A stretch of 40,621 nt of DNA, taken from sequence record PX596819.2; one strand, 5' to 3'. Within the stretch, counting starts at the first letter, position 1. Each line of letters begins with the position of its first letter. The stretch is from a phage. The notes under the pieces were generated by a model. The model had not been told where the DNA came from. It made no database searches and saw only the letters and a list, made by a program, of their open reading frames with translations. Shown here piece by piece: positions 3,450-40,012 of the stretch. The translations under genes and the position numbers were made by a program.

Positions 3450-3640
3450 GTTTTACCACCTCCTTTAATCGTTTTGTAGACTAGCACACCAATCTGGACA
3501 ACGGTGTACGCGATAGCTGCAACGTAGAACCATTCGTTCAGTGTAAGTCCGAAGAAGAACCGACTGGCACCATCAGCCGCAGCGGTCCCGACGATAGGAG
3601 AGGCTTTAAGGACCTCATTCTTGAAGTCTAACTCAATCAT
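3446..3640 (-). CDS. gp17.5: Holin (gp17.5-like)
   Basis: 64 aa with a hydrophobic TM segment (WFYVAAIAYTVVQIGVLVY) and charged C-terminus; follows the tail fibre gene as in T7. Confidence 0.75.
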   Translation of the reverse strand: MIELDFKNEVLKASPIVGTAAADGASRFFFGLTLNEWFYVAAIAYTVVQIGVLVYKTIKGGGKT

Positions 3641-3799
3641 AAAACCTCCAGTTTAAAGCGGGTCGTCCGTTACCCAAAGTTGTTACCATACGTTGGTCAG
3701 CGTGTAGTTAGCCTCTACCTCCACAACCTTCGATGGATTTTGATGATGAAATTCCATTCTGATACCATCAACCGCTTCTAAATAACGGGCCATTATTAT

Positions 3800-5995
3800 T
3801 TATACGATATTGTTCCCCATCGGTACCATGCTCATCGTAGGCGCTACGGAGTAGGATACAATAAGAGAATCACCGGGGGCGAGCATAACAAAGCCAGATG
3901 TCATACCTGTCACAGTTTGTGACCCACCGCGATTGAATTGGATACTCGTCACTGTGCCTCCAGTTGTAAGCACATTCTGGTACTCGCCTGTAGTATTTGT
4001 GTAGGTGAACGGGGAAGCCGTAACCGTGATAGGTTGGCGCAATTTTGTCGGGTACACATAAGCATTAGCGTCCAAGTCAAAAACATTACGGAAGCTACTA
4101 TTCGTGCCTGAATCGTAAATGCCTCCGCTGCCAGTGTCAAAATAGTTAACAGTCAGGTTTTCGATGTTCGCGGCAGAACAACCAGACTGCATTTCGATAC
4201 GCTCATGTAAGCCACCTACAATTCTCGCCCGGCGAGATGAACTGAGCAGAACGATGCTTTTGCCTGTATAACAGTTCTCCAGTACCGTATCTTGCCCACC
4301 ATCCAGCAGGTCTGCTGTCCCGTTAGCCTCAAAACCCATACCTACGAACTTATTCTGGCGTGACCCGCCTGAGGTAGTTATACCGTAGGTTCCGTTAGCC
4401 TCAGAAGTTCCGCCTATGAAGGTATTCAGGTCAGTGTCATTCAGGCGAATACCTGTACCCCCAACGCCTTCCATGATGGTATTAATAAACAGGTTTGCTG
4501 TTGACTTCAGGTTTCTGGACGGAGAAGTGCCAAGTACAAGACCGTAGTAAGGCTTGTTAGTAACTGGTTGCTCATTGATGGAATATGTTATGTTCTCGAA
4601 TACACTGGCAACGGTCCATAATAAACTCATAACCTTACCTGTTGTTGGGCTGGCCTCCCTTAAATTGATATTACGCATAGTTAGGTGTGAAGAATTCTCT
4701 ACATATAGAATGTGCTGGGTATTCGCATGACCTTCTATACCAATGTTTTCCACCACAACGTCGTAAACAGCTTGCAAACCATATTCTGAACCGTCGATCT
4801 TAAAAGCCTTCTCACCGGATGTACTTTTAAGGATAGTGTTATTTTTACCGTCCCCGAAAATATGAACACCTTTAACAGCAAAGTTTGGACCAGTCGCATA
4901 CGCATAAATACCAGCAGGGATGTATCCGCGTCGCTTATCTGTCTGGGCCACTACCGCGTTCCTGAATGCTGCCAGCTGTGCACTATTGTCAGTCACACCA
5001 TCACCGACGGCACCGAACCACAAGGCATTAATAGGGCCATCAAAGTCTCTCACCCAGCAACCGCTACCTGAAGGGTCTGATTCTCCGGTACCAGCCAAGA
5101 AAGCTGAGATGGAACTATACGGTACCGATGGGCTTATGATAGTACCACCATTGTGCGACGTTTTTGGCATGGTCGGTACGAAAATAAACTCGCCACCACC
5201 AGTAGGTTTTCCACCTGTTACTAATATATAATCAGAAGACCATGATTTTAGTTTTACCCTTGAGGTATCCCTCCCATATAAGCCATAAAATCCAGAAACG
5301 GAATCTAATTCCCCTATTAATGAATATCCAAGTTTGCTAGCAAGATGACTACGCAATGATGCATCACCAACACTAACCCACGCACCTACTCCAATCCCAC
5401 CGGAAGATTCAGGAGTTGAACCAGTAGGAACGTTCTTTGGAAGCGTACCATCCCAGCGGTAATAATCACTATCCTCCTCCCATAGCAGTACCTCGTTCCA
5501 TGTTGTAATGTTGAAGCCTTTCTCGAAGGAGCGACGGGTAATATAGCCAATTTTACCAGATGCCTTGATACTCTCAGCGATTCGTCGTGCTTCGTCCTCG
5601 CTATCCTTAGCGTTGCCAGCAGAGCTACCAGCGGCATCGGCATATTCCTTCGCTAAGTCAACCGTTTGGTCTCGACCTTCTTCTGCAATATGGATAGCCT
5701 GAAGCTCTGAATTGGTCAGGTCACTAGCTGTCAACACTGAGCCATTCCTGAAGTCTACCACTAAGTCAGTTCCAGTCTGACGGTGAATACGAACGATGTC
5801 GAAACCTGATTGGTCAACCAACATCTCAATCATCGTTGGATTAAAGAATCGGTAATCTCGGCCAACTTCCAGTACACGGTTCATGGTAGGGTTAGAGCTA
5901 TTCACCAGCGTAACAACAACAAACGTTCTGGCTAGGTAGTCGAACTCAATCCTGTAATGAGTGTTTCCTGAAGGGAATTGTGTAATAGTGGACAT
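3800..5995 (-). CDS. gp17: Tail fibre / tail spike (gp17) with T7-like N-terminal anchor and a distinct C-terminal beta-helix-like domain
   Basis: N-terminal ~150 aa (EFDYLARTFVVVTL, VDFRNGSVL, HIAEEGRD) resemble the T7 gp17 tail-attachment domain; the remainder is Gly/Asn/Thr-rich with repeated short strands, typical of tailspike beta-helices. Confidence 0.85.
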   Translation of the reverse strand: MSTITQFPSGNTHYRIEFDYLARTFVVVTLVNSSNPTMNRVLEVGRDYRFFNPTMIEMLVDQSGFDIVRIHRQTGTDLVVDFRNGSVLTASDLTNSELQAIHIAEEGRDQTVDLAKEYADAAGSSAGNAKDSEDEARRIAESIKASGKIGYITRRSFEKGFNITTWNEVLLWEEDSDYYRWDGTLPKNVPTGSTPESSGGIGVGAWVSVGDASLRSHLASKLGYSLIGELDSVSGFYGLYGRDTSRVKLKSWSSDYILVTGGKPTGGGEFIFVPTMPKTSHNGGTIISPSVPYSSISAFLAGTGESDPSGSGCWVRDFDGPINALWFGAVGDGVTDNSAQLAAFRNAVVAQTDKRRGYIPAGIYAYATGPNFAVKGVHIFGDGKNNTILKSTSGEKAFKIDGSEYGLQAVYDVVVENIGIEGHANTQHILYVENSSHLTMRNINLREASPTTGKVMSLLWTVASVFENITYSINEQPVTNKPYYGLVLGTSPSRNLKSTANLFINTIMEGVGGTGIRLNDTDLNTFIGGTSEANGTYGITTSGGSRQNKFVGMGFEANGTADLLDGGQDTVLENCYTGKSIVLLSSSRRARIVGGLHERIEMQSGCSAANIENLTVNYFDTGSGGIYDSGTNSSFRNVFDLDANAYVYPTKLRQPITVTASPFTYTNTTGEYQNVLTTGGTVTSIQFNRGGSQTVTGMTSGFVMLAPGDSLIVSYSVAPTMSMVPMGNNIV

Positions 5996-38099: not shown

Positions 38100-38122
38100 G
38101 AGTCCTATAGTGATAGTTAAGT
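38100..38122 (-). promoter_or_regulatory. Phage-RNAP-type promoter directly upstream of the RNAP gene
   Basis: Minus strand CTTAACTATCACTATAGGACTCAAGGTC, a full match to the consensus core, placed between the last early ORF and gene 1 and oriented into gene 1. Confidence 0.55.
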
Positions 38123-38127
38123 CAGAA

Positions 38128-38520
38128 TTACTTGCATATCAGCTGGTTAGCGTGGAGATGACTGAAGTCACCGTGAGTCGTGTGCTTGATGGTTGACCGT
38201 TGGTCTATCGCCTTCCAGCCTGAGACCAGAAGTTTACCATCGTCGGTGATTGGTCGTCCACCATACGCCAGACACATCTGCTCGGACTTATGGCCCTCGG
38301 CCAGGAGTCGTGCTTGCAGAACCCGGTCGCGCTCCTGCTGTTGACGTGCGGTATGTGACGAGTGGCGATGAACATAAGCGGTCTTGTTCCCTGTCTTCTC
38401 CCAGTAGTTGCGACCGCGAGGGTCCGTGCCGACGTACTTCCACTCTACGCCGTTCTTATCAGTGAATGTGTGAAGCGATGTGATTGAGTCCATTGCATGT
38501 ACCAGATTTGCCATATTCAT
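38128..38520 (-). CDS. Hypothetical early protein (130 aa), His-rich, immediately upstream of RNAP
   Basis: Start overlaps the upstream ORF stop (TAATG); no motif I recognise. Confidence 0.5.
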   Translation of the reverse strand: MNMANLVHAMDSITSLHTFTDKNGVEWKYVGTDPRGRNYWEKTGNKTAYVHRHSSHTARQQQERDRVLQARLLAEGHKSEQMCLAYGGRPITDDGKLLVSGWKAIDQRSTIKHTTHGDFSHLHANQLICK

Positions 38521-38723
38521 TACAGTTTACTCCCAAGAGTTGCTATATCCCAGACGTTCGCTAAGTTGCGCATGAATCGTCCGTTAGGTTGACGCACAGT
38601 CCAGCGACCCAGACGTACATAGTTGAATTTGTAGACTTTACGCGCTTTGTGGATGTCTTTCACCAGCACGTAGGCGATAAGTCCATAGCCTATGGCTATC
38701 AATAGTGCAAGACTCATAGTCAT
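38520..38723 (-). CDS. Small early membrane protein (67 aa, N-terminal TM then basic tail)
   Basis: MTMSLALLIAIGYGLIAYVLV then KDIHKARKVYKF..; ATG overlaps the upstream mini-ORF stop (ATGA). The track shows a 106-aa TTG-initiated extension that I consider less likely. Confidence 0.45.
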   Translation of the reverse strand: MTMSLALLIAIGYGLIAYVLVKDIHKARKVYKFNYVRLGRWTVRQPNGRFMRNLANVWDIATLGSKL

Positions 38724-38824
38724 AAACCCCAGAACAGTTGAGTAAGGACAGGAAGTTTGCCGACTAGAGTAAACATTCCCCACGCTACGAAGCCTGAGAT
38801 AGTCCAGATGATTGCAGTGTTCAT
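38720..38824 (-). CDS. Mini-ORF encoding a 34-aa hydrophobic peptide (MNTAIIWTISGFVAWGMFTLVGKLPVLTQLFWGL)
   Basis: GGAG 7 nt upstream of the ATG; stop overlaps the next start; single TM-like segment. Below the ORF-track size cut-off. Confidence 0.35.
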   Translation of the reverse strand: MNTAIIWTISGFVAWGMFTLVGKLPVLTQLFWGL

Positions 38825-38899: not shown

Positions 38900-39271
38900 C
38901 TACACTTCTACCGCGACGGTTGTCATCTTGGTTACAGTAAGTCCACCAGCCAGCTCAACTGCATAGCGTATCGCCTCGTCTTTGGACCTGAAATCTTTAC
39001 CAGCAAGGTGGTAAATGTCGCCGTTTATTACTTTGGCTGGCTTGCGGCTAACTGCTATAGCGTTGCTAAGGGAAAGCTCACCCTTCGACCACTGAGAGTG
39101 CCAGCGGCATACGCTCTTAGGAGATACGTTGAAGTCACTGGCCACCTTCGCAAGCATAGAGTCAAGTCTAGAAGAGCTACATTGAGGCTGGCGCACCAAG
39201 TCGTATGCCTTTGCTACTCGTATTTTAAAATCTACCGTGTAGCTGTTGCGGCTTTTAGTAGTTGTGTTCAT
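38900..39271 (-). CDS. Early helix-turn-helix DNA-binding protein (IS3-type transposase HTH-like N-terminus)
   Basis: YTVDFKIRVAKAYDL...LAKVASDFNVSPKSVCRWHSQW matches the pattern I associate with HTH_Tnp_1-type domains; no transposase catalytic ORF follows. Confidence 0.45.
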   Translation of the reverse strand: MNTTTKSRNSYTVDFKIRVAKAYDLVRQPQCSSSRLDSMLAKVASDFNVSPKSVCRWHSQWSKGELSLSNAIAVSRKPAKVINGDIYHLAGKDFRSKDEAIRYAVELAGGLTVTKMTTVAVEV

Positions 39272-39344: not shown

Positions 39345-39494
39345 TCACTTAGCGTGCAAACTGTCGTGTATGCGCTTGCGGCCATCATAGACCGCTTTCA
39401 GGTGACGCATAGCGGCATCATGGTTTAATTGCCCGTTCTTGACCATAATCCGGGCGTTGGTTACGTGGTGTTGACAGAGACCATAAGTTACCAT
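39345..39494 (-). CDS. Possible small basic ORF (about 49 aa) coupled to the end of the kinase-like gene
   Basis: ATG lies 2 codons before the upstream stop with GAGGTGAGG upstream; fills an otherwise empty 216 nt gap. Weak. Confidence 0.25.
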   Translation of the reverse strand: MVTYGLCQHHVTNARIMVKNGQLNHDAAMRHLKAVYDGRKRIHDSLHAK

Positions 39495-40012
39495 CTTGAT
39501 GACCTCACCTCTTGCAGCTTGGAAACAAGGAAGAAGCAGTCCACCAGTATCAGCTTACCATTAATAGCCCGTACATTTCGTGGGCTTATCTCAAATTGAA
39601 TGTCTGACCCGAAGTTAGCGCAAGCATCCAGCGCCATCAGCACATCCATCAGACCTTCCCGCACAGTCTCAGTATCAGACCTGTCGTGTGCAGCTTGGAA
39701 TATCTCGTACCACCTGTGATACAGTTCAGCAGGTCTAGAGAATACAGGAGACCGTGAGAAGCAATCCCGCAGCACCTGATAGAGTTGCCACTGGTCATCA
39801 TCTAAATGCGCTTTGAGACCTCGTGTTGGTGGTATGTAGTCCATCTCATACGTGCCTACCTCAATCATCTTGACTTCAGGGAACAGTGGAGACTCAGGGA
39901 ACCATCCCCACGCCATACACTCCTTTATCGGGTCAGAAGAGACCAGAAGAACACGCTTCCCGCAATCCTTCAGGTAGCACTTAGTGAACGCGCCTTTGCC
40001 TATCAGTTTCAT
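39488..40012 (-). CDS. First early gene: gp0.7-like protein kinase domain protein (174 aa), lacking a shutoff-domain extension
   Basis: Gly-rich loop KLIGKGAFTKCY, then FGSDIQFEISPRNVRAINGKLILVDCFF, resembling the T7 gp0.7 kinase-domain segments LGNGHFSAAY and [25 protein letters not shown] as I recall them; AGGA 8 nt upstream of the ATG. Confidence 0.4.
   Translation of the reverse strand: MKLIGKGAFTKCYLKDCGKRVLLVSSDPIKECMAWGWFPESPLFPEVKMIEVGTYEMDYIPPTRGLKAHLDDDQWQLYQVLRDCFSRSPVFSRPAELYHRWYEIFQAAHDRSDTETVREGLMDVLMALDACANFGSDIQFEISPRNVRAINGKLILVDCFFLVSKLQEVRSSRW

Follow-up and report, generated by a model that had tools for sequence, protein, structure and literature searches.

What does a T7-like phage do with a small gene placed directly ahead of its RNA polymerase (RNAP) gene? 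The question is raised by an open reading frame (ORF) of 130 amino acids (aa) on the minus strand of phage sequence record PX596819.2, of which the whole stretch of 40,621 nucleotides (nt) was analysed and is referred to here as the window. By its sequence, the ORF is the gp0.38 gene of a K1F-type (Kayfunavirus) T7-like phage. We propose, with a probability of about 30%, that its product is a small non-enzymatic protein of early host takeover. It would be expressed together with a gp0.6-like membrane protein, and its conserved tail would attach to a conserved component of the host. Kayfunaviruses (K1F, LM33_P1, CLB_P1 and many Salmonella Typhi phages) serve phage therapy and engineering, and their early genes are nearly all uncharacterised. 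Among these genes, gp0.38 is the only small one that almost all Kayfunaviruses keep, at a fixed place and with an almost invariant 18-residue tail, and this combination makes it well suited to the search for a new host target. It is also a candidate for learning how phages without the gp0.7 shutoff domain take over their hosts. Conserved ORFans of this kind are numerous and unsurprising in phage genomes; gp0.38 nonetheless offers a well-defined target for experiments.

The gp0.38 gene, its position and its family

The DNA of this region of the window is 90-95% identical to the Kayfunavirus genomes EcoDS1, LM33_P1, Bas105 and SH3, as well as to many Salmonella Typhi phages. The protein presents a full-length identity of 92% with EcoDS1 gp0.38 (92-93% including the PE3-1 and SEA1f proteins) and matches PHROG 7066, a family of unknown function, with an E-value of 2.3e-43, residues 43-130 being aligned with positions 4-95 of the 95 in the profile. 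Homologues are annotated as gp0.38 in EcoDS1 and as "hypothetical protein" in Bas105, SH4, B1 and others, and further catalogued members are CR8 gp0.38, PE3-1 PE3_006, SH4 ORF6 and Bas105_0013. With EcoDS1 gp0.38 and PHROG 7066 the window gene shares its position, the overlap with an upstream gp0.6-like gene and a promoter directly downstream; nothing material differs, the window protein being the long 130-aa form and the others mostly of 83-108 aa. Consequently, gp0.38 is an already catalogued family and not a new one: over 200 phage genomes list it as a hypothetical protein, and no functional study of it was found in the literature on gp0.38, EcoDS1 and Kayfunavirus early genes. An earlier note on this DNA had called the protein unknown, which stands for its function and fails for its catalogue status. 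The limits that the note gave for the ORF proved exact, and its description of a histidine-rich protein encoded by the last gene before gene 1 agrees with the counts and distances given below. The gene and its surrounding signals are the following:

38128..38520, minus strand: coding sequence of the gp0.38 family, 130-aa long form, stop codon included (ORF listing, ATG start)
38530..38534, minus strand: Shine-Dalgarno sequence GGGAG for gp0.38, within the 3' end of the upstream gene
38104..38116, minus strand: phage-RNAP promoter core CTATCACTATAGG, the first in order, 12 nt past the gp0.38 stop codon
35349..38030, minus strand: gene 1, T7-type single-subunit RNAP of 893 aa (ORF listing; annotated as RNA polymerase in all matching records)

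The early region of the window is T7-like and is established on the minus strand, from about 40.6 kb down to the RNAP gene. Read from the sequence, the gap between GGGAG and the ATG is 9 nt, and the start codon of gp0.38 has one base (A) in common with the TAA stop of an upstream 66-aa ORF, in the sequence TAATG at 38520. This arrangement, for which the earlier note had claimed translational coupling to a membrane mini-gene, is what coupled translation of the two genes would look like. Downstream, gp0.38 is the final ORF ahead of gene 1, whose start lies 97 nt past the gp0.38 stop. The promoter core CTATCACTATAGG is found in 11 copies in the window (at most two mismatches), every one of them on the minus strand, whereas chance alone would give 0.69, and the EcoDS1 site equivalent to 38104-38116 carries a phi promoter annotation. 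Since gp0.38 lies upstream of the first phage promoter, with none further upstream, it can be assigned to the class I (early) genes and would be transcribed by the host RNAP; we infer from this layout that it is the last gene strictly dependent on that enzyme. The 97-nt spacer before gene 1 contains no RNase III-like hairpin, and its folding energy is no better than that of shuffled sequences (z = 0.69).

For the study of synteny, about 30 loci were collected by tblastn and ORF tracing, namely 24 IMG/VR loci, the annotated EcoDS1, Bas105, K1F and CR8 genomes and two metagenomic contigs. In all of them gp0.38 is the last ORF before the RNAP gene, at a distance of 97-107 nt (143 nt in CR8). Upstream of gp0.38, the 66-aa gene is found in all loci but L012, and the 1-nt overlap between its stop and the gp0.38 start was present in 21 of the 28 related loci traced. 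Even the most divergent members (P0122, P0126 and P0129, with 34-48% identity in the alignment) start on the stop codon of a 64-66-aa gene and keep the same distance to the RNAP gene as the other members.

Concerning the reality of the gene, the ratio of nonsynonymous to synonymous substitution rates (dN/dS) of the last 82 codons, which form the core, ranged from 0.08 to 0.38 against 23 relatives, with synonymous divergence (dS) of 0.2-0.67, while codons 1-46 were less constrained in the same comparisons (0.30-0.77). Of 28 loci, 27 have an intact core, and the N-terminal part is degraded in one (L025). Judged by its substitution pattern, gp0.38 is a real gene whose core is under purifying selection. 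In K1F itself (NC_007456, our locus L007), an unannotated gp0.38 core ORF is located between gene 0.6 and gene 1 at about 2208-2468, and this copy carries an in-frame TAG/TAA-type stop at codon 13, after MKTVYINRPSIR; either the gene was inactivated, in nature or in the laboratory, or the sequence contains an error.

A tblastn search located gp0.38 in 213 phage records, and a 1.8-kb probe of the Kayfunavirus-type RNAP gene matched 220 records over at least 80% of its length; by comparison of the two counts, nearly every phage of the clade has gp0.38. Core identity is 64-93% in most phage records, and the recorded hosts are Escherichia, Salmonella, Citrobacter, Enterobacter, Klebsiella, Cronobacter and Shigella. 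Between 138 and 177 homologous protein clusters were found. When 1.84 billion representative proteins were searched exhaustively with a hidden Markov model (HMM), 15 matched at E <= 0.001, about 12 of them being true members when counted as clusters at 50% identity. All true matches are small phage proteins, those to long proteins being due to low complexity, and no bacterial relative appeared in this collection. As far as these sequence collections reveal, the family is narrow, clade-specific and nearly universal in its clade.

Architecture of the protein and its proposed role

Three length classes can be distinguished in the family: 83-86 aa (core only), 108 aa (N-terminal helix and core) and 130-139 aa (helix, beta module and core). 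The window protein thus represents a minority long form, most relatives being of 83-108 aa. AlphaFold2 modelling reached a predicted local distance difference test score (pLDDT) of 62 with a shallow alignment and of 72.6 with a diversified alignment of 62 sequences, and the latter model (about 90 in the core) was used for fold searches. The following segments were delimited:

38473..38520, minus strand: residues 1-16, N-terminal amphipathic helix (AlphaFold2 helix 3-15, low pLDDT)
38383..38472, minus strand: residues 17-46, three-stranded beta module, an optional insert (AlphaFold2 strands 18-20, 26-32 and 38-42, pLDDT about 77-84)
38185..38382, minus strand: residues 47-112, helical core (AlphaFold2 helices 55-74, 78-85 and 93-112, pLDDT about 88-91 over residues 61-100)
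38131..38184, minus strand: residues 113-130, tail HTTHGDFSHLHANQLICK, predicted to be disordered (pLDDT 44-54; 116-118 and 121-130 below 50)

The first 16 residues are occupied in about 33 of the 62 aligned sequences and are missing from the 83-86-aa forms. The beta module, of about 28 residues (FTDKNGVEWKYVGTDSRGRNYWEKTG; consensus FTDKNGVEWKYVGTDxRGRNYWEKTG), is occupied in about 23 of the 62, and its DSRGRxYW motif recurs in distant members (P0121, P0082, P0087, P0101 and P0018). In the aligned sequences, therefore, the N-terminus with its helix and beta module is an optional part of the family architecture. The helical core is present in all aligned members with a mean conservation of 0.66-0.84, and the match to PHROG 7066 falls on this part. 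The most conserved segment is the tail, which is almost invariant (HTTxGDFSHLHxNPLICK, mean column conservation 0.89): T114, G117, F119 and L122 are invariant, H113, D118, H121 and H123 are conserved in at least 94% and C129 in 77%. The window protein carries the family motifs T-x-x-G-D-F-x-H-L (C-terminal), DGKLL and AEG..YGG; it has a net charge of +4 to +5, an isoelectric point (pI) of 9.4 and a grand average of hydropathy (GRAVY) of -0.83, with no hydrophobic segment. A terminus that is conserved yet predicted to be disordered, carried on a small helical scaffold, resembles a docking peptide.

Two further observations concern these segments. CR8 gp0.38 (L008, 2950-3306) contains a perfect tandem duplication of 17 residues (SEDGKLLLAGLKAGIQK, twice) inside the third core helix. 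The N-terminus of the window protein, MNMANLVHAMDSITSL (38473-38520, minus strand), resembles residues 1-16 of T7 gp0.7, MNITDIMNAIDAIKAL, in exact register, with a BLOSUM62 score of 37 against a mean of -13 (standard deviation 8) at other offsets. This likeness is unproven, because 13% of shuffled sequences reach the local score and the gp0.7 N-termini of T3 and CR8 differ; it could be a remnant of the 5' end of gene 0.7 or a coincidence.

Searches for homology gave no indication of activity. Scans of the window protein against Pfam, NCBIfam and PADLOC returned sub-threshold noise only (CBM_20 and TrbM, for instance), as did the Pfam scan of all 62 family members, and neither the protein itself nor the family profile matched any PDB sequence. 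From BFVD, Foldseek returned only family members (EcoDS1 Gp0.38 and two others), and from the PDB nothing with E < 1. The protein accordingly appears, in these comparisons, to bear no enzyme signature. The earlier note had described a separate protein with no recognisable similarity, for which it suggested structure prediction, and had named clear homology to a characterised housekeeping phage protein as the finding that would count against it; no such homology was found in the sequence, profile and fold searches, none of which links gp0.38 to a characterised protein.

The genomic slot offers a further comparison. In the Citrobacter phage CR8 (Caroctavirus) the order is gp0.7 (242 aa), 0.705 (34 aa), 0.71 (64 aa, one transmembrane helix), 0.38, promoter and gene 1. 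A kinase-only gp0.7 of 242-243 aa was also detected in eight IMG/VR loci, in phage B1 and in L049/L050, and every gp0.7 found in gp0.38-bearing phages is of this kind. Where the kinase is present, one or two small membrane genes lie between it and gp0.38, which is a separate, unfused ORF. The earlier note placed the gene where T7 has the C-terminal portion of gene 0.7, and CR8 and several Kayfunavirus loci bear this out. No gp0.7 shutoff domain was detected in any of the approximately 30 gp0.38 loci, and no gp0.38 relative was found in the early region of the 15 shutoff-bearing T7/T3-like loci.

T7 encodes several small host-takeover inhibitors, namely gp0.4 acting on FtsZ, gp0.6 on MreB, and gp2 and gp5.7 on RNAP. 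By analogy, gp0.38 would resemble them in being small, non-enzymatic and lineage-restricted, with a gene in the early or middle part of the genome and a presumed action through binding of a host protein, although it bears no sequence relationship to any of them. In the mechanism that we propose, the helical core would serve as the scaffold of a small non-enzymatic binder, and the tail would dock onto a host component conserved across the Enterobacteriaceae. Through this docking gp0.38 would help the phage to take over its host early in infection, and it would do so from the genomic position that holds the gp0.7 shutoff domain in T7 and T3. The site of action of gp0.38 may be the gp0.6-like inner-membrane protein translated along with it, or the two may act jointly. 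The target is probably a conserved one, since the core is kept at 64-93% identity across host genera. A bolder version, which we consider improbable, would make gp0.38 a new type of effector, its invariant and disordered C-terminal peptide (of the consensus given above) docking onto an essential host protein shared by the Enterobacteriaceae, as a stand-alone replacement of gp0.7 shutoff, possibly positioned at the membrane by the gp0.6-like protein.

Several observations weigh against the host-takeover proposal. No homology points to any particular activity or target of gp0.38, and the low pLDDT of the tail may reflect a limit of the model instead of true disorder. Owing to the stop at codon 13, gp0.38 may be dispensable or shortened, at least in K1F. 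The pairing with the membrane gene is not obligate, given that L012 has gp0.38 without the 66-aa gene, that T3-like phages have a homologue of the 66-aa gene without gp0.38, and that in four loci (L018, L019, L025 and L026) an insert of 340-430 nt parts the two. With regard to the slot, homology to the shutoff domain was rejected (hhalign probability of 0.27% against T7 gp0.7 and of 1.3% against an alignment of shutoff domains), and T7 gp0.7 was not among the 50 Foldseek matches listed from BFVD. The shutoff domain is also far more basic (net charge +15 to +17, pI 11.2-11.4) than gp0.38. Finally, the mutual exclusion of the two tracks clades (Kayfunavirus and Caroctavirus versus Teseptimavirus and Teetrevirus) and so may represent one or two evolutionary events.

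Competing explanations for gp0.38

The alternative that survives best, although we regard it as unlikely, is a dedicated anti-defence protein inhibiting a specific bacterial immune system, a role for which the earlier note had named the protein a candidate. It would suit a small early ORFan encoded in the region where T7-like phages hold Ocr, SAM (S-adenosylmethionine) lyase and an anti-defence kinase, with a variable, modular N-terminus and an apparently non-essential role in K1F. The slot at the start of the early region does vary, being occupied by Ocr, a SAM lyase or a 174-aa protein. Ocr and the 174-aa protein were together in none of the approximately 30 loci, other relatives have SAM lyase there, and the loci with a kinase-only gp0.7 are mostly without both, CR8 being an exception with Ocr and kinase. 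Such swapping is the behaviour expected of arms-race genes. Against this patchy and mutually swapping distribution of the known accessory anti-defence genes in the same genomes, gp0.38 is near-universal (213 of about 220 records), which argues mildly against an anti-defence role, and it shows purifying selection, its tail staying almost unchanged in phages from at least six host genera. Its N-terminal form (130, 108 or 83-86 aa) did not correlate with whether a locus has Ocr, the 174-aa protein or the kinase. Compared with the described anti-defence families (Ocr PF08684, SAM lyase PF23780 and others), gp0.38 gave no Pfam or NCBIfam match above noise, these searches having included no dedicated anti-defence library, and PADLOC, whose models describe defence and not anti-defence systems, gave none. 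The near-universal presence, purifying selection and conserved tail are more in keeping with a conserved target in the host than with an immune system confined to particular strains.

An improbable explanation is that gp0.38 is a stand-alone functional analogue of the shutoff domain, binding DNA or the host RNAP, shutting off host transcription and replacing the C-terminal domain, which in these phages is absent either from gp0.7 alone or along with the whole of gp0.7. In T7 this domain is toxic, binds DNA, shuts off host transcription and acts independently of the kinase (PMC13645617). Both proteins occupy the identical slot immediately before gene 1, are expressed early, are basic and are largely helical; gp0.7 is kinase-only in every gp0.38 phage that has the kinase, and gp0.38 and the shutoff domain co-occur in none of 45 loci (30 with gp0.38, 15 with shutoff). 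On the other hand, profile comparison indicates two non-homologous proteins. PF27024 (Phage_T7_kinase), which covers the shutoff domain and does match fragments consisting of that domain alone, matched none of the 62 gp0.38 family members, and T7 gp0.7 was absent from the 50 listed matches of the BFVD fold search, as described above. The charge of gp0.38 is far lower (+5 versus +15 to +17), the protein is not fused to a kinase, and a Gp2-type inhibitor of the host RNAP is already encoded by these phages (PMC4925675; PMC12785254). The exclusion pattern is confounded by phylogeny, and as it follows genus boundaries and homology is absent, we treat a substitute for shutoff as a possibility and not as a finding.

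The third alternative makes gp0.38 the cytoplasmic subunit of a small membrane complex with two upstream products, involved in the envelope, cell division, ion balance or superinfection exclusion. The genes concerned are the following:

38520..38720, minus strand: 66-aa single-pass membrane mini-gene with an N-terminal hydrophobic helix (PHROG 2385, E = 4.6e-32)
38720..38824, minus strand: mini-gene for a hydrophobic 34-aa protein homologous to CR8 gp0.705; it overlaps the 66-aa gene through ATGA

The three genes overlap successively (ATGA, TAATG), and even the most divergent members keep the 1-nt overlap of the 66-aa gene with gp0.38. The same overlapping trio recurs in CR8 as 0.705, 0.71 and 0.38 (L008, 2648-3306). 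In L018 the insert at 3594-4016 is an endonuclease VII-like ORF of 140 aa that carries CxxC and HCH motifs, sits exactly at the junction and keeps a one-base overlap with each neighbour. Overlapping genes speak for coupled expression, for which gp0.38 appears to be arranged, and not for physical interaction. As already described, gp0.38 and the 66-aa gene also occur each without the other, in L012 and in T3-like phages respectively, and the GRAVY of -0.83 goes along with the lack of a hydrophobic segment in gp0.38. We find such a complex rather doubtful.

Binding of metal through the histidines, for Zn/Ni sequestration or metal-centred folding, is very unlikely. Histidine accounts for 10 of the 130 residues (7.7%), the highest share among the 42 minus-strand ORFs of at least 80 aa (mean 2.4%, standard deviation 1.6%), and the potential ligands H113, H121, H123 and C129 are all conserved in the tail, which is modelled with low confidence. 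However, those three are the only histidines conserved across the family, the other seven being variable, some members are without H123 or C129, and no known metal-binding family or fold was matched. Lastly, a spurious or decaying ORF without function, to which the K1F stop and the degraded N-terminal part in L025 could point, has next to no chance, being already contradicted by selection (dN/dS 0.08-0.38) and synteny, by the conserved Shine-Dalgarno sequence and start, by the core intact in 27 of 28 loci and by conservation reaching distant genera.

Neighbouring genes and minor observations

The first early gene of the window is located at 39488-40012 (minus strand), in the slot taken by Ocr in related phages, and encodes the 174-aa protein (PHROG 11084, unknown function), which has no match in Pfam or the PDB. 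It starts with a glycine-rich GKGAFTKCY sequence, and its segment FEISPRNVRAINGKLILVD aligns weakly with the CR8 gp0.7 segment FDLHRANVMVNGKGQLV, taken by analogy with known kinases as the catalytic loop, with D replaced by E and H by S. The 174-aa protein could represent a kinase-like fold that has degenerated, or else another anti-restriction protein. Between this gene and the mini-genes, a 123-aa early ORF at 38900-39271 (minus strand) gave sub-threshold helix-turn-helix signals (HTH_23, E = 0.0024; HTH_Tnp_1, E = 0.03); it is found with 58% identity in only some related phages (L011, L015, L023 and L024).

Regarding the mini-genes, the 66-aa protein is homologous to T3 gp0.6 (41% identity, pairwise E = 8e-10), as well as to EcoDS1 gp0.6 (65 aa) and CR8 gp0.71. 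It is of the T3 type and unrelated to T7 gp0.6, the MreB inhibitor. For the 34-aa ORF, tblastn gave 47% identity in CR8 and 94% in L012. The endonuclease VII-like insert of L018 is probably a homing endonuclease, and one record annotates an 'endonuclease VII' at the junction of the 66-aa gene and gp0.38.

Two candidate relatives of gp0.38 were not borne out. JSS1_004 proved to be a homologue of gp0.7. T3 gp0.65, the gene after gp0.6 in T3 (L006, 1614-1781), contains a segment, KHVKTALYAMAYGASKR, which aligns with the conserved gp0.38 segment EGHKSELMCLAYGGRP; homology is unsupported (hhalign probability 1.6%), and this short H-K-x-x-L-x-x-x-A-Y-G resemblance seems to be a coincidence of position and motif. 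As for gene 0.7 itself, two T7-like IMG/VR loci (L043 and L044) have lost its kinase part and kept the C-terminal shutoff piece just before gene 1, and in L044 this piece appears joined in a fusion to the end of the gene for Ocr, an arrangement shared with phiA1122.

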